A stretch of DNA of 64,000 nt from an uncultured Ignavibacteria bacterium (lineage in GTDB: Bacteria > Bacteroidota > Ignavibacteria > UBA10030 > SZUA-254), in assembly GCA_963724215.1 (NCBI GenBank), contig CAVRTZ010000008.1:130378-194377 (forward strand), in the 5' to 3' direction. Below, in pieces: positions 19,716 to 57,489 of the stretch (its first letter is position 1; each line of letters starts with the position of its first letter). Below the pieces are notes generated by a model. That model had not been told where the DNA came from and made no database searches. It saw only the letters and a list, made by a program, of their open reading frames with translations. Both the position numbers and the translations under genes were made by a program.

Positions 19716-19762
19716 GGCAGACTCCGAACGATGATCATCGTGTCGAGTGGCGGGTCCGGGAA

Positions 19763-30804: not shown

Positions 30805-30811
30805 GGATGCC

Positions 30812-34467: not shown

Positions 34468-34474
34468 GGTTATC

Positions 34475-36798: not shown

Positions 36799-37401
36799 AT
36801 GAAAATATTCTCAATTCTTTCCGGGCTCATCCTCCTCGCCGCGGGACCTCTCGCCGGCCAGGACGCCTGGCAGATCGACCGGTCGCACAGCTCCATCGAG
36901 TTCGCCGTCACCCACATGGTGATCGCCGAAGCGACCGGCCGTTTCAAGGACTTCGACGTCAAGATGACATCGACCGGCGAGGATTTCGCGGCAGCCGGGA
37001 TCGAGGCCGTCATCAAGACCGCCAGCATCGCCACCGACAACGAATACCGGGACAACGACCTGCACGGCGCCGAATTCTTCGACGTGGAGAAATACCCCGA
37101 GGCCACCTTCAAGAGCACGAAGTTCGAGAAGACGGGCGACGGCAGGTATAAAATCACGGGGAACCTCACGATCCGCGATACGACGAAGCCGGTCGTGCTC
37201 GACGCGACCTACTTCGGCAGCATCACCGATGCGAAGGGCGGCGTGCGCATGGGCTGGAAGGCCGAAACCACCATCGACCGTTTCGATTTCGGCGTCAAAT
37301 GGAACAAGGCGCTCGAAGCGGGCGGGCTTGTGGTTTCGAAGGACGTCAGGCTCACCATCCGGGTGGAGATGAAAAAAGTCCAGCCGGGAAAAAAGGAATA
37401 A
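36799..37401 (+). CDS. YceI-family periplasmic polyisoprenoid-binding protein
   Basis: 200-aa ORF with a signal peptide. It carries IDRSHSSIEFAVTHMVIAEATGRF, RDNDLHGAEFFDVEKYPEATF and ITGNLTIRDTTKPV, the canonical YceI blocks. Confidence 0.9.
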   Translation: MKIFSILSGLILLAAGPLAGQDAWQIDRSHSSIEFAVTHMVIAEATGRFKDFDVKMTSTGEDFAAAGIEAVIKTASIATDNEYRDNDLHGAEFFDVEKYPEATFKSTKFEKTGDGRYKITGNLTIRDTTKPVVLDATYFGSITDAKGGVRMGWKAETTIDRFDFGVKWNKALEAGGLVVSKDVRLTIRVEMKKVQPGKKE

Positions 37402-37430
37402 CCCCGCAGTCCCAATCATCCGGGAAAGCC

Positions 37431-38360
37431 ATGGCCGGCGAAACGATGAACAGGATCTTCATGCTACCGGACGAGAAGGAGATGGAGGCGTCCGGGAAGA
37501 CCACCATCCTGGAGGTCTCCCTCGATTCCGGCATCCCCCACGTCCACGTCTGCGGCGGGAAGGCGCGATGCTCCACCTGCCGTGTGGTGGTGGTCTCCGG
37601 GCTCGACCGTTGTTCTCCGCGCCAGGGCGCCGAAGAAAAACTCGCCGGCAGGCTCAACTTCGGGCCCCACGTGCGCCTCGCCTGCCAGACCACGGTCAGC
37701 GGCGACGTGACCGTCCGCCGGACGGTCCTGGACACGCTCGACATCCAGCTCTCCAACCAGACGGGTCCGGGCCTCAAGCTCGGGTCGGTCGGGGAGGAGA
37801 AACACCTCGCGATCCTCTTCGCGGACATCGGGGACTACACGTCGTTCGCGGAGTCGCTCCCCGCCTATGACGTGATCCACGCCCTCCGGCGGTACTTCAT
37901 CACGATGGGAAGGGTGATCGACGCGCACGGCGGCCGCATCAACGACTACGTCGGCGACGGGATCATGGCCCTCTTCGGCATCGACGACGCCCCCGATCCG
38001 GTCTACCGCGCGATCCGCGCCGGCCTCGAGATGCTCTGGGAGGTCGATTCCCTCAATCCCTACCTGCAGGCGATGTACCGGCGGACGTTCCGCGTCCGCA
38101 TCGGCATTCACTACGGTCCGGTGGTGATCGGCACGATCGGCATGGCCGACATGGAGAAGATGGCCGTGATCGGAGACGCGGTGAACGTCGCGGAAAGGAT
38201 CGAGGACGCCAACAAACAGACGGGCACGTCGATGCTCGTCTCCGACGCTGCGCTGCGCGAGGTCTTCGGCCGGGTCCGCACGCGGGAATCGTTCAGGGAC
38301 GTCTCCCTCAGGGGGAAACGCGCCCGCTTCACACTTCACGAGGTCTCCGAGGTCCTCTAG
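37431..38360 (+). CDS. [2Fe-2S] ferredoxin domain fused to a class III adenylate/guanylate cyclase
   Basis: ORF 37299..38360 trimmed to MAGETMNRIF. The N-terminal domain has CGGKARCSTC...LAC (C-x5-C-x2-C...C). The cyclase domain has LAILFADIGDYTSF, YVGDGIMALFG, IGIHYGPVVIG and VIGDAVNVAERIE. Confidence 0.85.
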   Translation: MAGETMNRIFMLPDEKEMEASGKTTILEVSLDSGIPHVHVCGGKARCSTCRVVVVSGLDRCSPRQGAEEKLAGRLNFGPHVRLACQTTVSGDVTVRRTVLDTLDIQLSNQTGPGLKLGSVGEEKHLAILFADIGDYTSFAESLPAYDVIHALRRYFITMGRVIDAHGGRINDYVGDGIMALFGIDDAPDPVYRAIRAGLEMLWEVDSLNPYLQAMYRRTFRVRIGIHYGPVVIGTIGMADMEKMAVIGDAVNVAERIEDANKQTGTSMLVSDAALREVFGRVRTRESFRDVSLRGKRARFTLHEVSEVL

Positions 38361-38364
38361 GGCG

Positions 38365-39075
38365 ATGAAGAACCTCTTCGAAATACCGCATTGCGAGACC
38401 TGCCTGCCGCGCCTCCATTCAGTGTTCAGCGTGCTTTCGCAGGAGGGACTCGCGAAGCTCCAGCTCCACAAGGGATGCAATTTCCACCGGAGCGGCCAGG
38501 TGCTCTTCTACGAGGGCGACTATCCTTCCGGCCTCTACTGCATCAACCAGGGCAAGGTCAAGCTGACGAAGGTCGGTGAGGCCGGCCGCGAACAGATCGT
38601 CCGGCTGGCCCGCGAGGGGGACGTCGTCGGCTATCGCGCGCTCGTGAGCGGGACGCCGTACGAACTCTCGGCCACGGTCCTCGAGGACGCGTCGATCTGC
38701 TTCATCCCCCGCCAGACGTTCCACGTCCTGATGGCGGAAAACCCCGCGCTCACCGCGCGGATCATGCGGCAGCTTACGCAGGACCTCGCGCGCGCAGAAC
38801 AGAAACAGGTGTCGCTCGCGCAGAAACAGGTGAGGGAGCGCCTCGCCGAAACGCTCCTGATGCTGAAGGAATTCTACGGCACCGAGGACGACCACCACAC
38901 CCTCCGGAGCAAGCTCTCCAGGGAAGACATCGCCAACTACATCGGCACGGCGACGGAGACGGTCATCCGGCTCCTGTCGGAATTCGCGAAGGAGGGGATC
39001 ATCGCGCTGGAGGGGAAGAAGATCAAGATCGTGGACCTCCGCACCCTGCGCGACGCGGCGCGCCTGCCGGACTAG
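38365..39075 (+). CDS. Crp/Fnr family transcriptional regulator
   Basis: 236-aa ORF starting 4 nt after the cyclase stop. It has a cNMP-binding beta-roll (GQVLFYEGDYPSGLYCINQGKVKL) and a C-terminal HTH (SREDIANYIGTATETVIRLLSEF). An N-terminal HCETC is present. Confidence 0.85.
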   Translation: MKNLFEIPHCETCLPRLHSVFSVLSQEGLAKLQLHKGCNFHRSGQVLFYEGDYPSGLYCINQGKVKLTKVGEAGREQIVRLAREGDVVGYRALVSGTPYELSATVLEDASICFIPRQTFHVLMAENPALTARIMRQLTQDLARAEQKQVSLAQKQVRERLAETLLMLKEFYGTEDDHHTLRSKLSREDIANYIGTATETVIRLLSEFAKEGIIALEGKKIKIVDLRTLRDAARLPD

Positions 39076-39263: not shown

Positions 39264-39279
39264 CATGATATAAATCATG
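39264..39279 (+). promoter_or_regulatory. candidate Crp/Fnr-family operator upstream of the cytochrome cluster
   Basis: Perfect palindrome CATGAT-ATAA-ATCATG. Its core TGAT-N4-ATCA matches the FNR-type consensus TTGAT-N4-ATCAA at 8 of 10 positions. Its centre is 66 nt upstream of the ATG at 39338. Confidence 0.4.
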
Positions 39280-39337: not shown

Positions 39338-40156
39338 ATGTTGAAGAAAACGACAAATATTAACAAGATCCTGGTACCGGTCGATCTCACGGACGCCTCA
39401 TTGTGCGCCGTTGAGGCCGCCCTGACCCTTTCAAGGGAAAAAAAATCCCAGATCTACCTTCTCCACGTCATCACCCGGGCCGACGACCGGCCGGGCGCCG
39501 GAGGGGAGACTGACCCGGAGCTGCAGAAAAAATACCGCGCGATGGAAGAGTTCTTCCTGAAGAAAGTCAGGCAGCAATCCAGGTTCGCCTGCATCGTCCG
39601 CACGGGGACGCCCGCTGTGGAGATCCTGACGTTCGCGAGGGAGGAAGGCGTCGACGTCATCGTGCTCCCCGTCGGGGCCGATCTGACCGGGGACGCCGTC
39701 CGGCCCGGGGGCATCGCCGACCAGATCGTCCGCAACGCCTCGGTCCCCGTCATGGTCGTCAAGCCGGGACAGGCCGCGCGGAAACTCACCGGTACCGTGC
39801 ATTGGGAAAAGGAAGAGAGGAACTCCATGCAACACGACGAACGCTATCTCCAGGAAATACGGCAAAGGGTGTGCGCGAAGTGCATCGACCGCACGCCGAC
39901 GGGTCTCTGCGTGACCTCCACCTACGATTCCTGCGCCATCAATAAATACCTGCCGGAAATCATTGACATCGTCCTCACGACCGGGGGCGACGACCTCGAC
40001 GCCTACGTCGCACGGTTGAGGGAAAAGGTCTGCGCCGTCTGCCAGCACCAGTCGCCCGACGGGCGCTGCGACGTGCGGGACGACGTCGAATGCGCCCTCG
40101 ACCGGTATTTCCCCATCGTCGTCGAGGCGATCCAGGAAGTGAAACACTCGCGATGA
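39338..40156 (+). CDS. universal stress protein (UspA) domain fused to a tandem four-Cys module
   Basis: 272-aa ORF. The USP fold spans aa 1-145 (ILVPVDLTDAS ... VIVLPVG ... VRNASVPVMVV). Two repeats of VCAxC-x8-C-x7-CA follow (aa 165-270). Confidence 0.75.
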   Translation: MLKKTTNINKILVPVDLTDASLCAVEAALTLSREKKSQIYLLHVITRADDRPGAGGETDPELQKKYRAMEEFFLKKVRQQSRFACIVRTGTPAVEILTFAREEGVDVIVLPVGADLTGDAVRPGGIADQIVRNASVPVMVVKPGQAARKLTGTVHWEKEERNSMQHDERYLQEIRQRVCAKCIDRTPTGLCVTSTYDSCAINKYLPEIIDIVLTTGGDDLDAYVARLREKVCAVCQHQSPDGRCDVRDDVECALDRYFPIVVEAIQEVKHSR

Positions 40157-40163
40157 ACCGCTC

Positions 40164-42521
40164 ATGAAACCGAACGATCAATCAGCCGGAAACGCCGCAC
40201 GCAACCCCCTCGCGCGGCTGATGCTCATGGTCGCGTTCGCGGCCGTGGCGTTTCTCCTGGCCGCGTTCTGGATCCTGGCAGGCCCGGCGAAGGCCCAGTC
40301 GAAGGACGACTGCCTGGCGTGCCACTCCGACGCTTCGCTCTCGACAGAGAGAAACGGGGCGCCGGTGTCGCTCCACGTCGACGCCGCCGTCCTCGACCGG
40401 TCGCCGCACCGGAAACTCGTCTGCGTCGCCTGCCACGCCGGCTTCGACCCCAACGAGCTCCCGCACAGGAAAACCATACGGCCGGTGGAATGCCTCACCT
40501 GCCACAAGGGCTCGGAATTGAAGCACGCGTTCCATCCCCAGATGGCGAAGTCGATCGCCGCCGGGGAAGAGCCTTCGGTCTCGTGCAAGGACTGTCACGG
40601 GACGCACAACGTCGTCTCGCCCAAAGAGAAGGAATCGCCGTTTAACCGCGCGAACATGTCCGAGGGGTGCGGCCGGTGCCACGGCGACGTCGTCGGGCAG
40701 TACGCTGCTTCGGCGCATGGCGGCGCGTTTTCGGCCGGCGTGAAAGGCGCGCCGGAGTGCCTCGGCTGCCACGGCCACGACGTCACGGCGTCGAGCCATC
40801 CGGACGACACCGTCGGCATGAAGCTCGCGCAGGAACGCCTCTGCCTCAGCTGTCACCTCGACAACCCCGACGTGAGGGAAAAAACCTCGCCTTCGGCGGG
40901 CTTCATCGCCGCCTACGAGCAGAGCGTCCACGGGCGGGCCCTGATGAACGGGAACGCCAGGGCGCCCAACTGCGTCGATTGCCACGGCAGCCACCAGATG
41001 GCGAAGGGTTACGACCCGGCGGCGAAGGTCAGCAAGATGAACATCGCCGAAACCTGTTCCAAGTGCCACGAAGACATTGCGAACGTCTACAACGAGAGCG
41101 CGCACGGCAAGGCGGTCGCCAAGGGCGTGGCCGACGCCCCCACCTGCACGAACTGCCACGGGGAACACACGATCCTCAGGCACAACGACCCGAAATCGCC
41201 GGTCGCGAAGCAGAACCTCTCGGCGCAGGTCTGCTCGCCGTGCCACAGCTCGGTCGCCCTCTCGACCAAGTACGGCATCGAGAGCGACCGGTTCAAGACC
41301 TTCTCCGACAGCTACCACGGCCTCGCCATCCGCGGCGGTTCGATCGAGGTCGCCAATTGCGCCAGCTGCCACGGGACGCACAACATCAAGTCGTCGAGCG
41401 ACTCCACCTCGATGATCAGCCGGGCGAACCTCGCGAAGACCTGCGGCAGCTGCCACCCCGGGGCGAACCAGCGGTTCACCGTCGGCAAGGTCCACGTGGA
41501 CGAATCCTCCCGCGCGGAGGAACCGATGCTCTACTGGATCACGACCGCCTACATCCTCCTGATCGTGGTCACCATCGGCGGGATGCTGGTCCACAACGCC
41601 CTCGACTTCGTGAAGAAATCTCGCCGGAAACTGATGATCCGCCGCGGACTCATCCCCCATCCGCACACGAGCCACGAGCTCTACCCGAGGATGAGCAGGA
41701 ACGAACGGTTCCAGCACGCGGCCCTCCTGTTGAGCTTCATGACGCTGGTCATCACAGGGTTCATGCTCCGGTTCCCCGAGGTCTGGTGGGTGCAGTGGAT
41801 CAGGTCGATCAGCGGATCGGTGTTCGACACCCGCAGCGTCATCCACCGCGTCGCCGGCGTGGTGATGCTTACCGCGAGCTTTTACCACGTCTGGTACATC
41901 CTCTTCACGGTCCCGGGGCGGCGGCTGGTGTTCGACATGTTCCCGCGGATCCAGGACGCGAGGGACGCCGTCGCGATGGTGAGGTACAACCTCGGTCTTT
42001 CCGCGGAGCGCCCGCTCTTCGACCGGTTCTGCTACATCGAGAAGGCCGAATACTGGGCCCTCATCTGGGGGACGTTCGTCATGGGCGCCACGGGCCTCGT
42101 CATGTGGTTCGACAACACGTTCATCGGTCTCTTCACGAAGCTGGGGTACGACGTCGCCCGCACGATCCATTACTACGAGGCGTGGCTGGCGACGCTCGCC
42201 ATCATCGTCTGGCACTTCTATTTCGTGATCTTCAACCCGGACGTTTATCCGCTGAACGTGGCGTTCTGGAAGGGCACGCTCACCGAAGAGGAGATGGAGG
42301 AGGACCATCCGCTCGAGCTGCAGCGGATCGTGGCCGGCAGGACGAGTGAGGACCTTCCCGCCGAAGAGATGCGGGGAGAGAAACTCGAAGACGGCGATGG
42401 CGCCGGCAGGGCGGCGAAAAAACAGACGACCGATGTGAAACCTCCGGCCGACGGGAAACCTCCGGTCCAGGGAAAACCGCCCGCCGGGAATCCCGACAAC
42501 CGCGGAGGCGGAAAGAAATGA
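40164..42521 (+). CDS. CbcL-like fusion: membrane-anchored 13-haem cytochrome c + FdnI/HydC-type dihaem cytochrome b domain
   Basis: 785-aa ORF. It has an N-terminal TM anchor, 13 CXXCH motifs (CLACH, CVACH, CLTCH, CKDCH, CGRCH, CLGCH, CLSCH, CVDCH, CSKCH, CTNCH, CSPCH, CASCH, CGSCH) and a linker TM helix. A 4-TM domain follows with His pairs IHRVAGVVMLTASFYH and IHYYEAWLATLAIIVWH and loop YIEKAEYW. The tail is Lys/Pro/Gly-rich. Confidence 0.85.
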   Translation: MKPNDQSAGNAARNPLARLMLMVAFAAVAFLLAAFWILAGPAKAQSKDDCLACHSDASLSTERNGAPVSLHVDAAVLDRSPHRKLVCVACHAGFDPNELPHRKTIRPVECLTCHKGSELKHAFHPQMAKSIAAGEEPSVSCKDCHGTHNVVSPKEKESPFNRANMSEGCGRCHGDVVGQYAASAHGGAFSAGVKGAPECLGCHGHDVTASSHPDDTVGMKLAQERLCLSCHLDNPDVREKTSPSAGFIAAYEQSVHGRALMNGNARAPNCVDCHGSHQMAKGYDPAAKVSKMNIAETCSKCHEDIANVYNESAHGKAVAKGVADAPTCTNCHGEHTILRHNDPKSPVAKQNLSAQVCSPCHSSVALSTKYGIESDRFKTFSDSYHGLAIRGGSIEVANCASCHGTHNIKSSSDSTSMISRANLAKTCGSCHPGANQRFTVGKVHVDESSRAEEPMLYWITTAYILLIVVTIGGMLVHNALDFVKKSRRKLMIRRGLIPHPHTSHELYPRMSRNERFQHAALLLSFMTLVITGFMLRFPEVWWVQWIRSISGSVFDTRSVIHRVAGVVMLTASFYHVWYILFTVPGRRLVFDMFPRIQDARDAVAMVRYNLGLSAERPLFDRFCYIEKAEYWALIWGTFVMGATGLVMWFDNTFIGLFTKLGYDVARTIHYYEAWLATLAIIVWHFYFVIFNPDVYPLNVAFWKGTLTEEEMEEDHPLELQRIVAGRTSEDLPAEEMRGEKLEDGDGAGRAAKKQTTDVKPPADGKPPVQGKPPAGNPDNRGGGKK

Positions 42522-44536
42522 AACGGACGATCGTCGTCGCCGCGGCGTTCCTGTTCCTCTTCGCGTTGAGTGCGACCGCGCAGGAGGACGCCGACTGCCT
42601 CTCGTGCCACGAGGACAGATCGCTGGAGGGGACCCGCGGCGGGAGGACGATGTCGGTGTACGTCAACGTGAAAACGCACGCCGGCTCGATCCACGGCGCG
42701 AACGGGTGCGTCTCGTGCCACGCCGACCTGGCGGGGAAGGAACTCCCCCACGGGGAGGACGTCGCCCCCGTCGACTGCGGCAGCTGCCACAGCGCGGAGC
42801 AGGAGGAGGAATCGAAATCGCTCCACGGCCAGGCCGCCGCGCGGGGCGACAAGCTCGCGCCCCTCTGCAAGGACTGCCACGGGACCCACAACGTGCTTCC
42901 GAAATCGAACCGGAACTCCCCGATTTCGCCCCTGAAAATCCCGTTCCTCTGCGGGAAGTGCCACCAGGAGGGTTCGCCGGTCCAGCGCCAGCGGGTGATC
43001 CACCAGGACAACATCATCGAGAATTTCTCGGAGAGCATCCACGGCGAGGGGCTCCTCAGGAAAGGGCTCATCGTGGCTCCCAACTGCGCCTCCTGCCACA
43101 CCGGGCACTCGATCCTCCCCCACACGAATCCCGCGTCGTCGATCGCGAGGAAGAACATCGCCTCGACCTGCACGAAATGCCACGCCGAGATCGAGGCGGT
43201 GCACCGCAAGGTGATCAAGGGGGAGCTCTGGGAGAAGGAGAACCACGTCCTCCCGGCGTGCGTGGACTGCCACCAGCCGCACAAGATCCGGAAGGTCTTC
43301 TACGCGCAGGGCATGGCCGACCGCGACTGTCTCAGTTGCCACGAAAAACCGGAACTGAAGTCCTCCCGCGACGCTCATTCGCTGACCGTGAAGGTTTCGG
43401 AGCTCACGGATTCGAGGCACGTGAAAATATCGTGCAGCCAGTGCCACGCGCAGGTGAACGCATCGAAGGTGAGGCCCTGCGAGACCATCACGGAAAAGGT
43501 CGACTGCGCGTCGTGCCACGCCGAGGTTGGCCAGCAGTTCAACGTCAGCCTCCACGGCAGGCTCGTCGCGAACAAGGACCCGAACGGGCCGACCTGCAAG
43601 GAATGCCACGGCCGGCACGGCGTGAAGGGGAAACAGGACCCGGCGTCGGGCACGTTCCCCACGAACGTCCCCGACCTCTGCGCGCGGTGCCACCGCGAGG
43701 GGAAGAAGGCGGCGCTGCTCTACACGGGGGCCGAGCACCAGATCATCGAGCGGTACACCGAGAGCATCCACGGCAAGGGGCTGATGAAGAGCGGCCTCAC
43801 CGTGACCGCGATGTGCAGCAACTGCCACACGCCCCACAGCGTGCTGCCGCGCAGCGACACGCTCTCGAGCGTCAACCCGCGGAACCTCCCGAAGACGTGC
43901 GGAAAATGCCACCACGGCATCGAGGAACAGTTCCAGAAGAGCGTCCATTCGAAGCTCGTCTCGAAATCCGACAAGGAGCTCCCGGTGTGCGACGACTGCC
44001 ACACCGCGCACAAGATCAAACGCGCGGACTCGCAGGGGTTCAAGCTCGAAATCATGCAGCAGTGCGGCCGCTGCCACGAGAAGATCGCGGAGACCTACTT
44101 CGACACCTACCACGGCAAAGTGTCCCAGCTCGGCTATACGAAGACGGCGAAGTGCTACGACTGCCACGGCGCCCACGACATCCTCCCGGTGGCCGACCCG
44201 AAATCGCACCTGAGCCACGACAACGTGGTCGGGACCTGCCAGAAGTGCCACGAGGGCGCTACGCGCCGGTTCGCGGGATACCTGACCCACGCCACGCACC
44301 ACGACCCGGAGAAATACCCCTTCCTCTTCTGGACGTTCTGGGGGATGACGTCGCTCCTGGTCGGGACGTTCCTCTTCGGAGGCGTGCACACGCTCCTCTG
44401 GCTCCCGCGGGCGTTCCAATACCGGAAATTGCTCAAGGCGAAGCACCTGGAGAAGATGAGCGGCGGGCCGCCCACGGCCCCTGAAATGGATGAACCCGGC
44501 AACGCGGGCGGCGGGAAGGAAGGGCGGGATGGATAA
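42518..44536 (+). CDS. 19-haem c-type cytochrome with C-terminal TM helix
   Basis: 672-aa ORF whose start overlaps the previous stop by 4 nt. It has a signal peptide, 19 CXXCH motifs counted, recurrent S(I/V/L)HG spacers, and a C-terminal helix YPFLFWTFWGMTSLLVGTFLFGGVH. Confidence 0.85.
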   Translation: MKRTIVVAAAFLFLFALSATAQEDADCLSCHEDRSLEGTRGGRTMSVYVNVKTHAGSIHGANGCVSCHADLAGKELPHGEDVAPVDCGSCHSAEQEEESKSLHGQAAARGDKLAPLCKDCHGTHNVLPKSNRNSPISPLKIPFLCGKCHQEGSPVQRQRVIHQDNIIENFSESIHGEGLLRKGLIVAPNCASCHTGHSILPHTNPASSIARKNIASTCTKCHAEIEAVHRKVIKGELWEKENHVLPACVDCHQPHKIRKVFYAQGMADRDCLSCHEKPELKSSRDAHSLTVKVSELTDSRHVKISCSQCHAQVNASKVRPCETITEKVDCASCHAEVGQQFNVSLHGRLVANKDPNGPTCKECHGRHGVKGKQDPASGTFPTNVPDLCARCHREGKKAALLYTGAEHQIIERYTESIHGKGLMKSGLTVTAMCSNCHTPHSVLPRSDTLSSVNPRNLPKTCGKCHHGIEEQFQKSVHSKLVSKSDKELPVCDDCHTAHKIKRADSQGFKLEIMQQCGRCHEKIAETYFDTYHGKVSQLGYTKTAKCYDCHGAHDILPVADPKSHLSHDNVVGTCQKCHEGATRRFAGYLTHATHHDPEKYPFLFWTFWGMTSLLVGTFLFGGVHTLLWLPRAFQYRKLLKAKHLEKMSGGPPTAPEMDEPGNAGGGKEGRDG

Positions 44537-45518
44537 GCACGACGAGGGCATGAAAAAACCGGGCGGGGAATCCACGCCCCTGAAATCGAAGCCGGAACGA
44601 CCGGCGCCCGCGCAATCCGCGCCGTCGCACGGCGCCCCGGCGCCCGCGGCGCCCGCGACATCCTCCCATCCCGTCGAGAGCGCCCCCCCCGCCGAGCGGC
44701 AGTTCCTCCGCTTCACGCGGCTCAACAGGGCCCTGCACATCTTCCTCATCATGAGCTTCCTGACACTCGCGCTCACCGGGCTGACGCTGAAGTTTTCCTA
44801 CACCGGCTGGGCGGTGGTGCTCTCGCACCTGCTCGGCGGGTTCGAGAGCGCCGGCTACCTCCACCGCTTCGCGGCGGTGATCATGTTCGCCGTCTTCACC
44901 ATCCACGTCACCGACGTCCTCAGGATGAAGAAGCGGGAGGGCCGCACCTGGAGGACGATGATCTTCAGCGCCGATTCGATGATGTTCAACGGGAAGGACC
45001 TCTCGGACTTCATCGGGTCGGTGAAGTGGTTCGTGGGGAAGGGCCCGCGCCCGCAGTTCGGCCGGTGGACCTACTGGGAGAAGTTCGACTACTTCGCCGT
45101 CTTCTGGGGCGTGGCGGTCATCGGCTCCACGGGGCTGATGCTCTGGTTCCCGGAGTTCTTCACGAATTTCATGCCGGGCTCGCTGCTCAACGTCGCCACG
45201 ATCATCCACAGCGACGAGGCCCTGCTCGCCGTCGGGTTCATCTTCACGGTGCATTTCTTCAACACCCACCTCCGCCCGGAGAAATTCCCGATGGACATCG
45301 TCATCTTCACGGGAAGGATGGACGTCGACGAGTTCGCCCTCGACAAGCCCGCGGAGTACGAGGAGCTCGTGAAATCGGGCCGGCTCGAGTCCCGCCTGGT
45401 CGAGCCGTACCAGCCGATCGTCATCCGGGCGGTCAAGGCGTTCGGGTGGACAGCGCTGATCATCGGGTTCAGCGTGGTGATCTGGATCATCTACGCGATG
45501 CTGTTTGCCTACCGGTAA
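44529..45518 (+). CDS. FdnI/HydC-type dihaem cytochrome b membrane subunit
   Basis: ORF 44490..45518 trimmed to the ATG at 44529, an 8-nt overlap with the upstream stop. It has a Pro/Ala-rich N-tail and four TM helices. The His pattern is LNRALH, LHRFAAVIMFAVFTIH, IHSDEALLAVGFIFTVH, with loop YWEKFDYF. It is a paralogue of the C-terminal domain of 40164..42521. Confidence 0.8.
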   Translation: MDKHDEGMKKPGGESTPLKSKPERPAPAQSAPSHGAPAPAAPATSSHPVESAPPAERQFLRFTRLNRALHIFLIMSFLTLALTGLTLKFSYTGWAVVLSHLLGGFESAGYLHRFAAVIMFAVFTIHVTDVLRMKKREGRTWRTMIFSADSMMFNGKDLSDFIGSVKWFVGKGPRPQFGRWTYWEKFDYFAVFWGVAVIGSTGLMLWFPEFFTNFMPGSLLNVATIIHSDEALLAVGFIFTVHFFNTHLRPEKFPMDIVIFTGRMDVDEFALDKPAEYEELVKSGRLESRLVEPYQPIVIRAVKAFGWTALIIGFSVVIWIIYAMLFAYR

Positions 45519-45614
45519 ACGGCGATGCCGTCATTCCATTCACGGCGGCCCCGGTGTTTGGATTCAACGCCGGAATCATTACATTGACAACTGTTTCCAG
45601 CCAACGACCCCAGA

Positions 45615-47114
45615 ATGAAACGCATCTTTCCCGCATCGTTCTATAACCTCACCACGCTCATCGGGGCGGCCGTCTCCGGCGTCAGCTTCGGCCTGATCCT
45701 GTTCCTGATGCTCGTCGAGTTCATGTCCGCCAACGAGCACCCGTACATGGGCATCATCACGTTCGTGATCCTCCCGGTTTTCCTCATGATGGGGATCGGG
45801 ATGATGGTGTTCGGCGTGATGCGCGAGCACCGGCGCGAGCGGCTCGGCAAGCCCCACGGCCTGCACCTGCCGCAGATCGACCTGAACAACCCGAGGCACC
45901 GCACCGCGTTCGTGAGCGTTTCGGTGGGGGGCATCGCGCTCCTCCTGTTCTCGGCGTTCGGCAGCTTCAAGGCGTACGAGTACACCGAGTCCGACCAGTT
46001 CTGCGGGGAGACGTGCCACACCGTGATGGAGCCGGAGTACACCGCGTACCAGTTCTCCCCCCATGCGAGGGTCGGCTGCGTACAGTGCCACATCGGGTCC
46101 GGGGCGGACTGGTTCGTCAAGTCGAAGATCTCCGGCAGCTACCAGCTCTACGCCGTCGCCTTCAACAAGTACCCGAAGCCGATCCCCACGCCGATCGAGA
46201 ACCTCCGGCCCGCGCAGGAGACGTGCGAACAGTGCCACTGGCCGAAACATTTCTTCAGCGAAAAACAGCGGACGAATACCTACTACCTCGCCGACGAAAA
46301 GAACACGCGCTGGGACATCAATCTGCTGATGAAGATCGGCGGCGGCAACGTCGAGGCGGGTCCCACATCCGGGATCCACTGGCACATGAACATCGCGCAC
46401 GAGGTCACGTACAAGGCCCTCGACCGCGAGCGGCAGGTGATCCCGTGGGTCAGGTCCAGGACGCCCGACGGCACGGAGACGATCTACCGGAGCACCGAGG
46501 TCGACGTCCCCGAGGATTCGCTCGCGGCGGCGTTCACGCGCCGGATGGACTGCATCGACTGCCACAACCGGCCGACGCACATCTACCATCCCCCCGCGCG
46601 CTCGGTGAACCACGTGATGTCGCTCGGCTGGATCAGCCCGTCGCTGCCGTCGGTGAAATCGGTGAGCGTCGAGGCCCTCGAGGCCGGATACGAAACGCGG
46701 CAGGGCGCGCTCGACACCATCCGGCTCACGATGGAGGGCTATTACCGGGACAACCACCCGGAGGTCTTCGAGACGAAAAAGCCCACGCTCGACAGCGCGA
46801 TCGCCGAAGTGCAGAAGATCTACAACAGGAACTACTTCCCCGAGATGAAGACAGACTGGAAGAAGTTCCCCGACAACCTCGGGCACCTCTACTATAACGG
46901 ATGTTTCCGCTGCCACGACGGCAAGCACGTCAACGAGGCGGGAAAGGTGCTCTCGAAGGACTGCAACACCTGCCACACGATCCTCTCGCAGAAATTCGAA
47001 GACGACACGCTCCGGATCTCCCTCGAAGGCGTCGATTACAGGCATCCCGTCGACATCGGCGACGCGTGGAAGGAAATGAACTGCAGCGACTGTCACGCGC
47101 CCGACGCACCATAG
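45615..47114 (+). CDS. inner-membrane heptahaem cytochrome, NapC/NirT-related, ImcH-like
   Basis: 499-aa ORF with three N-terminal TM helices. It has 7 haem sites: CGETCH (CX3CH, followed by TVM as in the NapC/NirT first site), CVQCH, CEQCH, CIDCH, CFRCH, CNTCH, CSDCH. Confidence 0.75.
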   Translation: MKRIFPASFYNLTTLIGAAVSGVSFGLILFLMLVEFMSANEHPYMGIITFVILPVFLMMGIGMMVFGVMREHRRERLGKPHGLHLPQIDLNNPRHRTAFVSVSVGGIALLLFSAFGSFKAYEYTESDQFCGETCHTVMEPEYTAYQFSPHARVGCVQCHIGSGADWFVKSKISGSYQLYAVAFNKYPKPIPTPIENLRPAQETCEQCHWPKHFFSEKQRTNTYYLADEKNTRWDINLLMKIGGGNVEAGPTSGIHWHMNIAHEVTYKALDRERQVIPWVRSRTPDGTETIYRSTEVDVPEDSLAAAFTRRMDCIDCHNRPTHIYHPPARSVNHVMSLGWISPSLPSVKSVSVEALEAGYETRQGALDTIRLTMEGYYRDNHPEVFETKKPTLDSAIAEVQKIYNRNYFPEMKTDWKKFPDNLGHLYYNGCFRCHDGKHVNEAGKVLSKDCNTCHTILSQKFEDDTLRISLEGVDYRHPVDIGDAWKEMNCSDCHAPDAP

Positions 47115-47141
47115 TCCCAACAGGCATCATAGGACAGAACG

Positions 47142-47600
47142 ATGAACCCCACCAGCAACCAGCCCGCTCCCGACGCCGGGAAACGAGACTTCCTGAAATA
47201 CGCACTGGGGGGAGGATTGCTCGCCTTTTTCGCGTCGATCTTCTATCCCGTCCTCGCCTACCTGAAACCCCCGGTCCAGGCGGAGGTGGAGGTGAAATCG
47301 GTGAACGCGGGGAAGAAGGACGACATCCCCCGCGACTCGGGGAAGATCATCAAGTTCGGCACCAGGCCGGTGATCCTCGTCCGGACGGCCGACGACGAGC
47401 TCAAGGCGTTCGACGCCACCTGCACCCACCTCGACTGCACGGTGCAGTTCAACAAGGACATCGGGATGATCTGGTGCGCCTGCCACAACGGCAAGTACGA
47501 CCTCACCGGGCGAAACGTCGCGGGTCCGCCCCCAAGGCCGCTCACGCCGTACAAGGTCATCATCCAGGGCGATGAAATCCTGATCGCGAAAAACGCATGA
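47142..47600 (+). CDS. Rieske [2Fe-2S] subunit of a cytochrome bc/b6f-type complex
   Basis: 152-aa ORF. It has a Tat-like KRDFLK plus TM anchor and cluster boxes CTHLDC and CACHNG. Confidence 0.9.
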
Positions 47601-48691
47601 AGAACGCACTGAACAAAGCCTACGACTGGGTCAACGAGCGGGTACACCTCGAAGACCTGGTGAACTTCATGGGGAAGAAGTATGTTCCCGTGCACCGTCA
47701 TTCCGTCTGGTACTACTTCGGGGGCGTGACGCTCTTCCTCTTCATCATCCAGGTCGTCACGGGGATCATGCTGCTCCTCTATTATAAGGGGAGCGAGGAC
47801 CTGGCATTCGAAAGCATCCAGTTCATCATGTCGAAGGTGGAGTTCGGCTGGCTGATCCGGTCGATCCACAGCTGGGCGGCGAACCTCTTCATCCTCTCGG
47901 CGATGATCCACATGTTCAGCGTGTTCTTCGAAAGGACCTACCGCAAACCGCGCGAGATCACCTGGCTCACCGGGATGTTGATGCTCTTCCTCGGGATGGG
48001 GTTCGGGTTCAGCGGGTACCTGCTCCCCTGGAACGAACTGGCGTTCTTCGCCACGAAGGTCGGGACCGACATCGCCGGCGTCGTGCCGTTCATCGGCGAA
48101 CCGATACTGGAATTCCTCAGGAGCGGCCCCGACGTCACCGGCGCGACCCTCTCCAGGTTCTTCGGGTTCCACGTCGCGGTCTTCCCCGGCCTCTTCACCG
48201 TCCTCCTCGGGATCCACCTCGTGCTGGTCCAGCGGCAGGGGATGAGCGAGCCGATGGGCCACGGCACGACGGACGAGGGCGGGGCGCCGCCCATGGCGAT
48301 GAAGAAAATGCCCTTCTTCCCGAACTTCCTCTACCGGGACCTCCTGTTGTGGCTCATCGTCCTGAACCTGCTCGCCGTCCTCGCGGTGCTCTTCCCGTGG
48401 GAGCTGGGCGTGAAGGCCGACCCGTTCGCGTCAGCCCCCGCAGGCATCAAGCCGGAGTGGTACTTCATGTTCATGTTCCAGACGCTCAAGTACCTGCCTG
48501 CGAACGTCCTGGTCTTCGAGGGCGAGATGCTCGGCATCATGTTCTTCGGCCTCGCCGGGCTCCTCTGGACGCTGGTCCCCTTCTGGGACAGGAGCAGCGC
48601 GAGGGGGAAGAAGAGCCGGCTCGTCACCTACGGCGGCCTCATCGCCGTCATGTTCATCATCGTCATGACCATTATCGGCTGGCTCTCATGA
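47597..48691 (+). CDS. cytochrome b6 fused to subunit IV (cytochrome b of the Rieske/b complex)
   Basis: 364-aa ORF with an ATGA overlap with the Rieske stop. Helix B is [16 protein letters not shown] (H-x13-H) and helix D is [17 protein letters not shown] (H-x14-H, b6/Bacillus-type). The PEWY motif (KPEWYFMF) lies in the C-terminal half. Confidence 0.9.
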
Positions 48692-50217
48692 AGACACGAA
48701 CCGTCATCTTCGCGGCGGCGCTGCTGCTCACCGCCACCGGCGGGTTCCCGCTCCTCCCCGCGCCCGCGCTTCACGCCCAATCCGCCGACGCCCTGTTCCG
48801 GACCGCGACCGCCAGACCGGACAACTGCTTCACCTGCCACAAGGCCCTCGGCGAGGTGGCGGGGGTGAAGTACACGGCCGACATCCACTATAAAAAGGGT
48901 ATCTCCTGCGCCGGTTGCCACGGGGGCGACCCTACGACCGACGACCAGGAAAAGTCCATGTCCGCCGACCACGGGTTCCTGGGTGTACCGAAGGGCGACG
49001 ACGTCTCGAAGACCTGCCAGCGGTGCCACTCAGACGCGCAGGTGATGAAGGTGAACTTCAAGTCGTCGGTGGGGCTGAACCAGATGGAGGACCTCGCGGC
49101 CAGCGTCCACGGGAAAATGGCCGTCTCGGGGAAGGAAAAGATGGTCCAGTGCGTCACCTGCCACAGCGTCCACGACATCAGGAGCGTAAAGGACCCCCAG
49201 TCCCCGGTCAACCACCTGAACGTCAACAGGACCTGCGCGACCTGCCACTCGAGCGCACTCTTCATGAGGTCGTACAACCAGGCCCTGCCGATCGACCAGG
49301 AGGAGAAATACAAGACGAGCGTCCACGGGATGAAGCTTGCGAAGGGCGACGCGAAGGTGGCCGTCTGCTCGAGCTGCCACGGCAGCCACGACATCCTCAA
49401 GGCCGTCGACGCGAAATCGCACGTCAACGCGATCAACCTGCCCGCCACCTGCGGCACCTGCCACGCGAACGCGGAGTACATGAAGGAGTATTCCATCTCC
49501 ACCGACCAGCTCGCGGAGTTCCGCACGAGCGTCCACGGCAAGGCCCTGCTCGAGAAGCACGACCTCGGCGCCCCCTCGTGCAACGATTGCCACGGCAACC
49601 ACGGCGCGGCGCCGCCGGAGGTGGCGTCGATCTCGAAAGTGTGCGGCACGTGCCACGCGATGAACGCGTCCCTCTTCGCCGAAAGCCCTCACAAGAAGGC
49701 CTACGACGAACTCGGCCTTCCGGAGTGCGAGACGTGCCACGGCAACCACGCGATCATCAACGCCACCGACGCCCTCCTCGGGGTCTCGGACGAGGCGGTC
49801 TGCTCCCGCTGCCATTCGCAAAGCGACAACCCGAAGGGGTTCCAGGCGGCGGCGCTCATGCGCATCATGATCGACTCGCTCGAACTTGCCGAACACAGGG
49901 CCGATTCGCTCGTGTCGAACGCCGAGCAGAAGGGGATGGAAATCTCCGAGGCGAAGTTCAAGCTCCGCGACATCCGGCAGGCAAGACTGCTGTCGCGCAC
50001 GGCGGTGCACTCGTTCAACGAGCCGAAATTCGCGGAGGTCGTGAACCAGGGGATCGCCGTCGCCGGCGTGGTGGCGGTGCAGGGGCAGGCGAGCATCGAC
50101 GAGTACTACTTCCGGCGGTACGGGCTGGGCGTGGCCACGCTGATCATCACGATCGTGGCGATCGCGCTCTACATGACCATTAAACGAATCGAGAAGAAAC
50201 AGGCCGAAAAGGCCTGA
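48688..50217 (+). CDS. 11-haem c-type cytochrome with helical stalk and C-terminal TM anchor (in the cytochrome c1/f position)
   Basis: ORF 48349..50217 trimmed to the ATG at 48688, an ATGA overlap with the cytochrome b stop. It has signal peptide [19 protein letters not shown], 11 CXXCH motifs, a long charged helical region, then [19 protein letters not shown]. Confidence 0.85.
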
Positions 50218-50222
50218 CCGGT

Positions 50223-50244
50223 GGCCCCGCCTTCGCGCGGGGCC
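50223..50244. terminator. GC hairpin between convergent genes (possible bidirectional terminator)
   Basis: GGCCCCGC-CTTCGC-GCGGGGCC forms an 8-bp perfect stem, 6 nt after the stop at 50217 and 4 nt before the convergent stop at 50248. There is no U-tract. Confidence 0.5.
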
Positions 50245-50247
50245 GGG

Positions 50248-51612
50248 TTACTTCACATACACCGTCTTGACGTTCACGAACTCCCGTATCCCGTGAACGC
50301 CCAGTTCCCTCCCGTATCCCGAATTCTTCACTCCTCCGAACGGAAGCCGCACGTCGGACGACACCATCTCGTTGATGAACACCGATCCCGCCTCCAGATC
50401 TTCGATGAACAGCGCCTTTTCCCTTTCGTCGTTCGTCCACGCGCTCGAGCCGAGTCCGAACGGCGAATCATTCGCGAGCGTCACCGCCTCTTCGGCGCCG
50501 GCGACCGTGAAAAGAAGCGCCACGGGCCCGAAGAACTCCTCCCGGTACGCGGGGGAGTCGTGAGGGATGTTGCTCAACACGGTGGGAGGGTAGAAGTTGC
50601 CTTCCCCGGGGAGCCGTTCGCCTCCGAGCAACAATCGGGCGCCCTTCCGAACCGATTTCTTCACCTGCCGGTCGAGGTCCTCGAGAATCTCCGGCGTGGC
50701 GAGGGGCCCGACGCCGGTGGCGGGGTCCATCGGGTCCCCGGTTTTCAGCTTCTTCATTTCTTCGACGAACCGTTCCGTGAATGCCGCTGCGACGTCCTGA
50801 TGAATGATGAACCGCTTCGCCGCGATGCACGATTGCCCGTTGTTGACGACGCGCGCCTTCACGGCGGTCGAGACGGCGGCGTCCAGGTCGGCGGTCGGCA
50901 TCACCAAAAATGGATCGCTCCCGCCCAATTCCATCACGCAGGTCTTGATCGACGACCCCGCGACTCCCCCCACCTCGCGGCCGGCCATGTCGCTTCCGGT
51001 CAGCGTCACCGCCTTGATCCTGGGGTCTTCGATCACCTTCGCGGTGCCGGCGGAAGGAAGGAGGAGGGTCTGGAACACTCCCTCGGGGAACCCCGCCCTG
51101 CGGATGATCTCCTCGATCGCGAGCGCGCATTGCGGGACGTTCGAGGCGTGCTTCAGGAGACACACGTTCCCCGCCATGATCGCCGGCGCGGCGAACCGGA
51201 ACACCTGCCAGAAGGGGAAGTTCCACGGCATGATCGCCAGCACCGGACCGAGCGGTTCGTAGCGCACATAACTTCTCGTCGCGGCCGTCGGTACCACGTC
51301 GTCAGCCAGGAATTTCTCCGCCTCGTCAGCGTAGAACCGGCAGGCCCACGCGCACTTCGAGGCCTCGGCGATCGCGGCCGTGAAGAGCTTCCCCATCTCG
51401 AGCGTCATCAGCTTCGCGAACGATTCCTTCCCGGATTCCAGGATCTCGCCCGCCTTCCGCATCAGGGCGGCGCGTTCGGCGAACGTGGTCCTGTGGTGGG
51501 AGGCGAAACGAGTTCGGGCCTTCTCAATTTTTTGTTCGAGGTCCTTGTCGCTGATCTGCCGGAAGGATTTCAGGAGCTCTCCGGTGGCGGGGTTGACGGT
51601 CTGGATCGGCAT
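50248..51612 (-). CDS. NAD(P)-dependent aldehyde dehydrogenase, succinate-semialdehyde dehydrogenase-like
   Basis: 454-aa intact ORF. ALDH blocks are PWNFPFWQ, VTLTGS, VMELGGSDP (catalytic Glu), NNGQSCIAAKR (catalytic Cys) and EEFFGPV. Confidence 0.9.
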   Translation of the reverse strand: MPIQTVNPATGELLKSFRQISDKDLEQKIEKARTRFASHHRTTFAERAALMRKAGEILESGKESFAKLMTLEMGKLFTAAIAEASKCAWACRFYADEAEKFLADDVVPTAATRSYVRYEPLGPVLAIMPWNFPFWQVFRFAAPAIMAGNVCLLKHASNVPQCALAIEEIIRRAGFPEGVFQTLLLPSAGTAKVIEDPRIKAVTLTGSDMAGREVGGVAGSSIKTCVMELGGSDPFLVMPTADLDAAVSTAVKARVVNNGQSCIAAKRFIIHQDVAAAFTERFVEEMKKLKTGDPMDPATGVGPLATPEILEDLDRQVKKSVRKGARLLLGGERLPGEGNFYPPTVLSNIPHDSPAYREEFFGPVALLFTVAGAEEAVTLANDSPFGLGSSAWTNDEREKALFIEDLEAGSVFINEMVSSDVRLPFGGVKNSGYGRELGVHGIREFVNVKTVYVK

Positions 51613-51760: not shown

Positions 51761-52605
51761 ATGCGACTCCCGATGGAAAAAATCATACGCGTGGGGCACA
51801 GCCCGGACCCCGACGACGCCTTCATGTTCTACGGCCTGGCCAGCGGCAGGGTCAAGCTCGAGGGGATCAGGATCGAGCACATGCTCGAGGACATCCAGTC
51901 GCTGAACGCCCGCGCGATGAAGGGGGAGCTGGAGGTCACCGCGATCTCGGCCCACGCCTATCCCTACGTCCAGGACAAATACTGGATCATGCGCACCGGC
52001 GCGAGCATGGGGGACGGGTACGGCCCGGTGCTCATCTCGAAAAAGTACAAGACCCTCGCGGAGTTGAAGGGAAAGACCGTCGGAACGCCCGGGCCCCTCA
52101 CCACCGCGACGCTCCTCTTCAGGATGTTCACCGAGGGGATCGAAACATCGACCGTCCCTTCGACCAGTTGATGCCGATGATCGACGCCGGGAGGCTCGAC
52201 GCGGGCGTCGTGATCCACGAAGGGCAGATTACGTATCAGGAACAGGGATACCATAAGATCCTCGACTTCGGAGAGTTCTGGCGCGACGAGACGAAGGGGC
52301 TCCCCCTCCCCCTCGGCCTCGACGTGGTCCGGAAGGATCTCGGGGAAAAGATGGCCCGCGACCTGTCCGTGGGCCTGCGGGAGAGCATCGACTACGGCTA
52401 CGAGCACCAGGAAGAATCGATCCCCTACGCGCTCGAGTGGGGCCGCGGAATCGACGCGGACAAGGGGGAAACATTCGTGAAGATGTACGTCAGCGACCTG
52501 ACGATCGACATGGGGGAGCGGGGAGAAGCGGGGCTGAAGGAACTGTTCCGCCGCGGCGGCGAAAAAGTCGGGTTGCCGGCGGTGAAAGAATTCAGGCTGG
52601 TGTAA
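51761..52605 (+). pseudogene. mqnD: MqnA/MqnD-fold menaquinone (futalosine pathway) protein, MqnD-like; one frame break
   Basis: IRVGHSPDPDDAFMFYGL and LEDIQSLNARAMKGELEVTAISAHAYP come first. After the C3 run at 52156-52158, VPFDQLMPMIDAGRLDAGVVIHEGQITY continues in the next frame to the stop at 52605. A separate MqnA is present, hence the MqnD-like call. Confidence 0.7.
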
Positions 52606-57484: not shown

Positions 57485-57489
57485 CGCGG

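Follow-up and report, generated by a model that had tools for sequence, protein, structure and literature searches.

Electron transfer from the quinone pool to minerals or electrodes has been studied almost wholly in Geobacter and Shewanella. In Geobacter sulfurreducens, ImcH (GSU3259) is an inner-membrane heptahaem menaquinol oxidase used with high-potential acceptors, and CbcBA, a bc oxidoreductase of two subunits, operates close to the energetic limit. ImcH, CbcL and CbcBA serve different acceptor potentials, with imcH and cbcL being constitutively expressed. Together with an uncharacterised Rieske/cytochrome b cluster, they are kept at separate loci in Geobacter and have been treated as independent, potential-specific routes. 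Here, we describe eight adjacent genes, g1 to g8, in a 64-kb stretch of DNA from an uncultured Ignavibacteria bacterium (contig CAVRTZ010000008.1; the whole stretch is hereafter called the window), in which predicted relatives of these routes stand side by side. Modular in make-up and drawn wholly from known families, the cluster is conserved across several uncultured phyla. With moderate confidence, and reasoning from gene sequence, we regard it as probably encoding a co-transcribed battery of four separate menaquinol:multihaem-cytochrome oxidoreductases that would form the inner-membrane end of an electron-export system.

Homologues of the Geobacter proteins have previously been reported from other phyla. 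The work that defined ImcH (Levar 2014, PMC4251993) noted homologues in Melioribacter, and a later survey (Zhong and Shi 2018, PMC6295460) listed homologues of ImcH and of CbcL/MtoC/MtrH from Ignavibacteriae and Bacteroidetes, including fused 19-haem Ignavibacteria CbcL homologues with six transmembrane (TM) helices (Table S2 of that paper). A first-pass annotation of the window, which gave Desulfuromonadota as the source of the characterised examples, was overstated on this point. Published identities of non-Geobacter ImcH homologues range from 31.5 to 49%. A multi-omics paper on Melioribacter (PMC5492636) makes no mention of such genes, and the Rieske/b pair in the Caldithrix genome paper is a different one, located within a nap locus. 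Full-text literature searches found no description of ImcH or CbcL linked to Rieske/cytochrome b, or of CbcL-ImcH adjacency as a general pattern. The first-pass annotation knew of no described complex that joins all three gate types; a genome search showed the same gene order recurring in relatives. What appears to be new is the systematic linkage of such quinol oxidases with each other and with a multihaem Rieske/b complex and, in relatives, what also appears new is their linkage with a porin-cytochrome conduit.

Modules and haem complement of the cluster

Open reading frames (ORFs) were read in all six frames of the window, the G+C content of which is about 64%. The eight cluster ORFs all lie on the forward strand between positions 39338 and 50217 (Table 1), at the coordinates of the first-pass annotation, and the successive spacings from g1 to g8 are +7, −4, −8, +96, +27, −4 and −4 nucleotides, in accord with the tight packing (overlaps of 4–8 nucleotides or gaps of no more than 96) that had been claimed for them. 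From g1 to g8, the CXXCH motifs number 0, 13, 19, 0, 6, 0, 0 and 11, and g5 adds one CX3CH at C130. The resulting total of 50 haem-c sites (13+19+7+11) agrees with the original count and, as described below, recurs exactly in seven relatives. Hydropathy supports a membrane anchor in each of the four cytochromes (g2, g3, g5 and g8), again as first proposed. Elsewhere in the 64 kb, a six-frame scan found no ORF with more than one CXXCH motif, so the concentration of haem sites in the cluster is genuine. The window also has no soluble shuttle, porin-cytochrome or catalytic terminal enzyme, an absence remarked upon at first pass as well. The proposed module identities (CbcL-like, a split paralogue of it, ImcH-like, and Rieske/b with an undecahaem cytochrome) were likewise borne out by Pfam and NCBIfam matches, by paralogy and by the invariance of motifs.

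The CbcL-type fusion, g2 (785 residues), matches Ni_hydr_CYTB and formate dehydrogenase gamma/FdnI models at residues 509–693, in addition to multihaem domains in Pfam and NCBIfam. Its hydropathy profile shows a signal or anchor segment and five TM helices after the haem domain. H479, H518 and H561/H575 occur in the first three of these helices, and H669 and H684, 15 residues apart, occur in the fifth, which would fit the published pattern for CbcL, in which six TM helices follow the haem domain, with His residues in the first three and two in the fifth.

A second copy of this design is encoded by the next two genes. The alignment of the g3 product with g2 (E = 1e-50) covers the haem domain and extends into TM helix 1, and g4 aligns with g2 residues 507–731 (31% identity, E = 3e-24). 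The two genes together are a split paralogue of g2, with six TM helices after the haem domain (one from g3 and five from g4) compared to five in g2. The equivalents of g3 and g4 form a single ORF in a Calditrichota genome (L052, 6807–9665, 952 residues) and in a KSB1 genome (L029, 255–3032, 925 residues), so the split is lineage-specific. The haem spacing of g3 is that of a published fused 19-haem Ignavibacteria CbcL homologue, OGU58019.1, bar a single one-residue indel, and orthologues of g4 are found at 60–86% identity in at least 20 loci. The combination that defines the CbcL/MtoC/MtrH group, namely, a multihaem c domain with a HydC/FdnI-type dihaem b domain, is present in g2 and, spread across two genes, in g3+g4. 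The nine-haem count of GSU0274 is matched by neither g2 (13) nor g3 (19); the published family table spans 9–19 haems, so this difference does not speak against membership.

The ImcH-type protein, g5 (499 residues), has TM helices at residues 16–34, 47–65 and 98–116 by hydropathy. Its CX3CH occurs at residue 130, right after the third helix, and is followed by CXXCH at residues 155, 204, 313, 430, 450 and 490; these seven motifs are invariant across 30 diverse relatives. Cytochrom_NNT matches residues 97–186, the NrfH model matches residues 105–209 (E = 5e-15), and NrfH in the PDB (2j7a_C) matches residues 101–209. Table S3 of Zhong and Shi 2018 (PMC6295460) gives GSU3259 as 507 residues, with TM helices at 13–35, 45–67 and 100–122 and haem motifs at 132, 156, 205, 311, 428, 448 and 486. 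The same table lists Ignavibacteria ImcH entries of 496–498 residues, with motifs at, for example, 130, 154, 203, 312, 429, 449 and 489. Close relatives of g5 collected here share its seven motif positions, in agreement with Table S3 given a one-residue offset in the table's later columns. E125, K171 and Y186 of g5 may correspond to E127, K173 and Y188 of GSU3259, conserved protonatable residues near haem 1, since they have the same mutual spacing (46 and 15) in numbering deduced from Table S3 and not from direct alignment.

The last three genes encode a Rieske/cytochrome b module. The g6 product matches Pfam Rieske (E = 1.9e-13) and PetC-type models and carries CTHLDC at residue 94 and CACHNG at residue 112, so that both cluster boxes and the disulfide cysteines are present; its nearest solved relatives are b6f-type and anammox (Kuenenia) Rieske proteins. 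The g7 product matches Cytochrome_B (E = 1.5e-48) and Cytochrom_B_C, with cytochromes b6 as its best PDB matches (E = 3e-58), and it contains the four haem-ligand His residues expected on helices B and D (H91/H105 and H192/H207) together with a PEWY Qo motif at residue 286. The third redox subunit is not a monohaem cytochrome c1/f. Its place is taken by the anchored 11-haem g8, which overlaps g7 by 4 nucleotides and has its C-terminal TM helix at residues 480–498. Orthologues of g8 always follow the cytochrome b gene; those of Ignavibacteriota/Bacteroidota have 11 haems, and those of Acidobacteriota, Calditrichota and KSB1 have 9. Since the partner is an 11-haem cytochrome instead of c1/f, g6–g8 are grouped with the multihaem Rieske/b variants of Geobacter (Cbc6) and of anammox bacteria. 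The core is as first described, and precedents for it exist in Geobacter Cbc6/ExtMNOPQS and in the anammox complexes.

None of the four cytochromes has a gathering-level Pfam or NCBIfam match to catalytic families of the NrfA, HAO or OTR type, and none contains CXXCK. The sole NrfA matches in the PDB are local, haem-motif alignments of about 50 residues, with E values of 7.5e-5 or weaker. A relationship of g8 to nitrite reductases was also considered on account of weak Cytochrom_C552/NrfA matches and was rejected, as these matches are local only, score below threshold and lack CXXCK.

Table 1. Features of the cluster and its immediate surroundings (window coordinates)
Feature	Position	Strand	Evidence
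g1: universal stress protein (Usp) with C-terminal 8-Cys extension; heads the gene string	39338..40156	+	Pfam Usp, E = 2.4e-18; 7 nucleotides before g2
g2: CbcL-type fusion; 13-haem periplasmic domain plus 5-TM FdnI/HydC-type dihaem b domain	40164..42521	+	13 CXXCH; Pfam/NCBIfam
g3: 19-haem cytochrome c; signal peptide, one C-terminal His-bearing TM helix	42518..44536	+	19 CXXCH; paralogy with g2
g4: 5-TM FdnI-type cytochrome b, partner of g3	44529..45518 (start ambiguous; alternative start 44490)	+	FdnI match; paralogy with g2
g5: predicted ImcH-type heptahaem quinol dehydrogenase; 3 TM, CX3CH plus 6 CXXCH	45615..47114	+	motifs; NapC/NirT/NrfH matches
g6: Rieske 2Fe-2S subunit; N-terminal anchor (KRDFLK, Tat-like)	47142..47600	+	Pfam Rieske; b6f PetC-type models
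g7: cytochrome b; b6-like N-terminal half fused to subunit-IV-like C-terminal half	47597..48691	+	Cytochrome_B, Cytochrom_B_C
g8: 11-haem cytochrome c; signal peptide, helical stalk, C-terminal TM helix; stands in for cytochrome c1/f	48688..50217	+	11 CXXCH
2Fe-2S ferredoxin-domain adenylate/guanylate cyclase; candidate redox-sensing input	37299..38360	+	Pfam Fer2 and Guanylate_cyc
CRP/FNR-family regulator (cNMP-binding and HTH_Crp_2)	38365..39075	+	Pfam
Palindrome ATGATATAAATCAT; FNR/CRP-type 5-4-5 box about 60 nucleotides upstream of g1	39265..39278		pattern scan
GC-rich hairpin between g8 and convergent aldehyde dehydrogenase gene	50215..50250		folding −24.2 kcal/mol, z = −2.6

Recurrence and reshuffling of the modules among relatives

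Species-representative genomes were scanned, which gave at least 598 loci; the best 80 were examined together with five more fetched via homologues, two of which proved to be duplicates, leaving 83 distinct loci. These were searched by tblastn with the window proteins, and a partner module was scored when it lay within 10 kb. In the module code used here, L is the CbcL-type fusion, A the 19-haem cytochrome, B its b subunit, H the ImcH-type protein, R the Rieske protein, b cytochrome b and c the terminal multihaem cytochrome. The g5 family itself is large, with more than 8000 close matches and 775 clusters at 50% identity that reach E < 1e-30, and its best homologues are found in metagenome-assembled genomes of Ignavibacteriae, Ignavibacteriota and Bacteroidota.

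The LABHRbc order of the window was first thought to be singular, but it occurs in at least seven complete loci, all of Ignavibacteriota/Bacteroidota (L001, L004, L006, L008, L009, L016 and L048), and the orthologues in these seven have the identical 13/19/7/11 haem counts, as do the Ignavibacteriota/Bacteroidota copies in general. The same order is seen in L003 as far as the end of its contig and, with a 9-haem terminal cytochrome, in the Calditrichota genome L052. Identities of g5 orthologues in the conserved-order genomes are 47–88%.

Many other loci carry the modules in shorter or rearranged form. ABHRbc runs up to the contig end in L012 and L013, LHRbc is found in L007, L010 and L015, and LABH occurs in five loci. 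LH alone accounts for about 31 loci, mainly from Acidobacteriota and a second Ignavibacteriaceae type, while RbcLH occurs in four Acidobacteriota loci and ABLH in three. KSB1 has the order ABRbc...H, and a Melioribacteraceae locus (L085) has HRbc. The Ignavibacterium album locus L023, from a metagenome-assembled genome, is of the LH type, and in L069 and L081 the ImcH-type gene stands by itself. Sub-combinations of this kind are common in Acidobacteriota, KSB1 and Verrucomicrobiota, and the acidobacterial copies have 9–13 haems in L and 9 in c. Taken together, the 83 ImcH-type loci include L in 58, B in 22, Rb in 24 and at least one partner module in 67.

The order in L086, where the g5 orthologue is 82% identical, reads LMF1 ... 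MarR, CRP, Usp, L, A, B, H, inserted module, R, b, c ... aldehyde dehydrogenase. This insertion, which lies between the ImcH-type and Rieske genes of both L001 (11520–14216) and L086 (11530–14238), makes up a fifth quinone-interacting module; it encodes a 246-residue multihaem cytochrome, an NrfD-type membrane protein and a 4Fe-4S protein, a set that can be compared with Geobacter Cbc4. At this position, the window has only a 27-nucleotide gap (47115–47141).

Another kind of extension is seen at the far end of the cluster. In 11 loci (L006–L010, L012, L015, L016, L019, L021 and L030), six extra genes come immediately after the inner-membrane set and encode a 4-haem c554-like cytochrome, a 438-residue porin-like protein, a 12-haem cytochrome of 360 residues, two multihaem lipoproteins and a CcmF-like protein. 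The 438-residue protein has a faint phosphate-porin match, and the 4-haem cytochrome is small and probably soluble. In L006, this porin-cytochrome-like set occupies 14384–21491, and one of its lipoproteins has a CX4CH motif of the Geobacter type. Judged by their predicted products, these downstream genes point to extracellular electron transfer. They lend support to such a role for the cluster, for which metal-oxide or electrode respiration and Fe(II) or reduced-sulfur oxidation were first listed as compatible.

Flanking genes and candidate regulation

The first-pass annotation had placed a cyclase/CRP pair upstream of the cluster and menaquinone synthesis downstream, in a stretch said to be free of frame breaks. 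The neighbours are as it described them, with the correction that the menaquinone genes do contain frame breaks. L003 and L086 also have a CRP-family gene immediately before the Usp gene; the Fer2-cyclase gene is likewise upstream in L003, the closest relative, and is not adjacent in L086. A MarR gene is also found upstream of the cluster.

The palindrome between the CRP-family gene and g1 is the sole perfect match to the ATGATATAAATCAT box in the window, and five matches with no more than one mismatch were found against 0.6 expected. Counterparts occur at the equivalent position in L003 (CTGATATAAATCAT) and in L086 (ATGACAATTATCAT, one change per half-site region), amid surrounding spacers that have diverged. 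This conservation suggests that the palindrome could be bound by the CRP-family regulator, and expression of the cluster would probably be governed by this adjacent regulator, fed by the ferredoxin-domain cyclase and acting through the conserved palindrome. At the other end, the hairpin after g8 is the probable end of the transcription unit; it has no T-run and hence was left uncalled by the terminator scan. Within the cluster, that scan found no intrinsic terminators above chance, and a promoter scan, whose model lacks Bacteroidota-type promoters, found no sigma-70 promoters above chance.

A different regulator is seen in other lineages. A sigma-54 response regulator lies near 21 of the loci, with −24/−12-like sequences in some, and the window's clade has the CRP-type regulator in its place. 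Positions of this sigma-54-dependent regulator upstream of the cluster include 2120–3478 in L001 and 2135–3493 in L004, and it is found at many Ignavibacteria loci; a −24/−12-like sequence before the Usp gene is exemplified by TGGCACAACTCTTGAA in L030 (about 3100–3200). The control of Geobacter cbcBA by BccR offers a parallel to these sigma-54 regulators.

The gene that heads the cluster, g1, has no haem motifs and is a universal stress protein, a correction to the earlier account. A Usp gene stands ahead of the cluster in L001, L003, L004 and L086 as a called gene and in L021 and L030 by tblastn. The C-terminal third of g1 (39800–40156) is an extension of about 110 residues with two repeats of C-x2-C-x8-C-x7-C followed by Y(L/F)P, for which Pfam gave no match. 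Long Usp forms of 275–277 residues occur in L003 and L086, and short forms of 169–172 residues occur in L001 and L004. The Cys-rich extension may be a metal- or redox-sensing domain.

Downstream of g8 come the convergent aldehyde dehydrogenase gene and then menaquinone genes (futalosine and prenyl-decarboxylase). The mqnA gene (VitK2_biosynth) is frame-broken at 51761–52605, with an ORF at 51761–52171 covering profile positions 1–113 and positions 125–250 falling in another frame at about 52156–52605; either an assembly indel or a pseudogene would account for this. On the reverse strand at 55940–58936, a UbiD-type decarboxylase ORF has part of a UbiX-like flavoprotein at its N-terminus, and the UbiA prenyltransferase ORF beside it spans only profile positions 2–66 of 250. 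These irregularities are likely to be further frame breaks in quinone-synthesis genes. Well upstream of the cluster (29008–36046), a DUF1800/DUF1501 gene pair is present in two tandem copies, and each DUF1501 protein has a terminal type-IX secretion sorting domain; the syntenic region of L086 has no such pairs.

Electron routes, alternatives and known systems

As a battery of separate oxidoreductases, the four modules would all draw on one menaquinol pool and feed membrane-tethered haem chains that reach into the periplasm, menaquinol being taken as the quinone because menaquinone genes lie downstream. In g2, quinol would be oxidised at the FdnI-type dihaem b domain, with electrons passing out through the 13 c haems. 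The g3+g4 pair would follow the same design in split form, the 19-haem subunit giving the first TM helix, with its His, to the 5-TM b subunit. A third exit would be provided by g5, whose NrfH-like heptahaem chain could oxidise quinol at haem 1 on the periplasmic face. Finally, g6–g8 would form a Rieske/b6-type complex in which the high-potential branch ends in the anchored 11-haem g8 and a proton-motive, energy-conserving Q cycle is possible. By analogy with Geobacter sulfurreducens, the modules may be parallel exits partitioned by acceptor potential. Since Geobacter imcH and cbcL are constitutive and selection there is post-transcriptional, the choice among exits would presumably be made by acceptor potential at the protein level, and not by separate transcription. 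In many relatives, electrons would then pass to the adjacent porin-cytochrome conduit and out of the cell; as the window has no such conduit, that of this genome would have to lie outside it.

Several points weigh against this reading. The cluster is known from its genes alone, and its strict co-linearity and translational overlap could equally reflect physical assembly. CbcL/MtoC-type proteins are also found in Fe(II) oxidisers, so the flow may run in either direction. The assignment of g5 and g2 to the ImcH and CbcL families draws on architecture and on published motif tables, with no Geobacter locus among the best 80 of at least 598 and neither a Geobacter entry nor an accession of those tables among the clusters of 20 family members, and the same selection skews the 83 loci toward relatives of the query. 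An AlphaFold2 model of g5, built from a 36-sequence alignment at 69–88% identity, was too poor for use, with a predicted local distance difference test score of 53.9 (below 50 in the haem regions) and a predicted template modelling score of 0.29. Porin-cytochrome genes are absent beside the cluster in the window and in L086 and L088, the nearest relatives with sequence beyond g8, and for this reason the extracellular destination is only presumed in this organism.

Of the alternatives, the one that survives best, though still unlikely, is that the modules are physically assembled into a single supercomplex or work in series, for instance with the haem chains of the ImcH- and CbcL-type proteins docking on g8 and so coupling a Q cycle to long-range export. 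Start and stop codons overlap by 4–8 nucleotides at four junctions, gene order is strictly conserved in the complete loci, all of the cytochromes are membrane-tethered with no soluble carrier in the window, and ImcH-type genes are rarely alone, as the 67 of 83 loci with a partner module attest. However, variants such as LH, LHRbc, RbcLH, ABLH and HRbc would not be expected of obligate subunits, the Geobacter homologues work independently, and most relatives carry the small 4-haem, probably soluble, cytochrome in the cluster. Because modules are so freely gained and lost among genomes, separate enzymes are favoured over one complex; in place of the three gate types joined in a single complex, as first worded, the shuffling, addition and loss of modules fit separate co-regulated ones. 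We also think it quite improbable that ImcH-, CbcL- and Rieske/b6-type modules are not interchangeable alternatives but constitute one integrated membrane machine, widespread outside Desulfuromonadota, whose tethered chains of 11, 13 and 19 haems together make a common wire across the periplasm. Were this true, a Rieske/b Q cycle or quinol-based bifurcation would conserve energy during electron export or import over a wide potential range, and the CbcL-ImcH adjacency seen in 58 of 83 loci would represent an ancestral two-part enzyme, secondarily separated in Geobacter.

Another possibility, to which we give little credence, is that electrons flow inward, with extracellular Fe(II), reduced sulfur or a cathode reducing menaquinone and the Rieske/b complex running in reverse at the expense of the proton-motive force. 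Haem wires are reversible, the window has no terminal reductase, and CbcL/MtoC/MtrH homologues occur in metal reducers and Fe(II) oxidisers alike without any distinguishing sequence feature. On the other hand, ImcH homologues have so far been linked only to quinol oxidation, and the cultured Ignavibacteria that bear these genes (Melioribacter and Ignavibacterium) are organoheterotrophs, some of them Fe(III)-reducing. In addition, a Rieske box II without the Ser of CPCHGS suggests a low-potential cluster, and the CACHNG of g6, which lacks this Ser, could mean a cluster matched to menaquinol.

Similarly doubtful is the idea that the modules feed periplasmic reductases encoded elsewhere, for which nitrite, N2O, polysulfide/thiosulfate, arsenate and selenite (soluble or colloidal) are candidate acceptors. 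In other anaerobes, periplasmic Nap, Hao and Nos do receive electrons from Rieske/b complexes, and the Geobacter Ext cluster, which contains a Rieske/b pair, has been tied to the reduction of selenite and tellurite. A molybdopterin oxidoreductase/FeS/NrfD set is found 4 kb downstream in L004, and the nearest relatives lack an adjacent porin-cytochrome set. Yet 50 haems in long tethered chains would be excessive for a soluble enzyme, no catalytic-family signature was found in the four cytochromes, and in 11 relatives it is a porin-like protein and multihaem lipoproteins that come next. As for an incidental adjacency of unrelated respiratory genes, the separate loci of the Geobacter homologues are the sole point in its favour, and the recurrence of the order across phyla and across g5 orthologues of 47–88% identity, the retention of haem counts and the overlapping reading frames make it highly improbable.

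The linkage of homologous modules in many uncultured Ignavibacteriota, Acidobacteriota, Calditrichota and KSB1 genomes, often beside a porin-cytochrome conduit, would provide a compact, portable marker of the potential for extracellular electron transfer in abundant soil, sediment and bioreactor lineages. It also offers a natural experiment on whether such quinol oxidases cooperate. Moreover, it is a first genomic hint that a Rieske/b Q-cycle complex may routinely take part in such pathways, which bears on how much energy can be conserved. If the modules are merely co-regulated alternatives, then the linkage is a useful comparative-genomic observation and not a new mechanism.

How the cluster compares with described systems can be seen module by module, beginning with the outer-membrane link. 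The contiguous layout of porin-like, 12-haem and lipoprotein genes in the 11 relatives is that of the porin-cytochrome (Pcc) clusters that Shi et al. (2014) reported for Ignavibacterium album, among other bacteria, where I. album was noted as having 'associated cytochromes'; the window itself differs in having no Pcc genes. CbcL, ImcH and Rieske/b genes were not counted as members of these islands in that survey.

For g6–g8, the nearest parallel in Geobacter is Cbc6/ExtMNOPQS, which likewise combines a Rieske protein (ExtO), a b6-type cytochrome b (ExtP) and multihaem cytochromes in lieu of c1/f, and which has a subunit-IV-like ExtQ and cytochromes of 10–12 haems. In contrast, b6 and subunit IV are fused in g7, the single 11-haem partner has its own TM anchor, and the cluster has no selenoprotein, rhodanese or ExtI porin. 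Against the ExtP model, g7 scores 199 bits (E = 6e-59) relative to a cut-off of 290, and it is therefore not an ExtP equivalog. The anammox complexes (Kuste4569-4574 and Kustd1480-1485) are also b6-like, with a TM-anchored hexa- or octahaem cytochrome replacing cytochrome f; the cluster described here differs in its 11-haem partner and in being without an NAD(P) oxidoreductase or HAO-like subunit.

The g3/g4 pair invites comparison with CbcBA (Cbc5), which consists of a 7-haem CbcA with a C-terminal His-bearing helix and a 4-TM CbcB (Joshi et al.). Both systems pair a c subunit that has a single C-terminal His-bearing TM helix with a separate dihaem b subunit, and a sigma-54 response regulator is found near cbcBA just as it is near the cluster at many Ignavibacteria loci. 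They differ in haem number (19 in g3 versus 7 in CbcA) and in the window's regulator, which is of the CRP type and not the sigma-54 type. CbcB, a 'thiosulfate-reductase-like' protein, has no sequence homology to CbcL according to Joshi et al. An identification of g3/g4 as a true CbcBA was rejected, given that g4 is paralogous to the CbcL-type b domain of g2, whereas CbcB is reported to be unrelated to CbcL. The pair is thus CbcBA-like in design only and, by sequence, groups with CbcL.

The likeness of g2 to CbcL itself (GSU0274; Cbc1) lies in a single polypeptide that begins with a multihaem c domain and ends with a dihaem b domain of the HydC/FdnI type. CbcL has 9 haems, 6 TM helices and 619 residues, while g2 has 13 haems, 5 post-haem TM helices and 785 residues, and the window's second copy, g3+g4, has 19 haems and is divided between two genes. 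Lastly, g5 shares with ImcH three N-terminal TM helices at nearly equal positions, a CX3CH followed by six CXXCH motifs, identical inter-motif spacings of 49, 117 and 20, and NrfH/NapC homology over TM helix 3 and the first haems. The difference is one of setting, in that imcH is monocistronic in Geobacter and g5 sits between a bc-type pair and a Rieske/b set.

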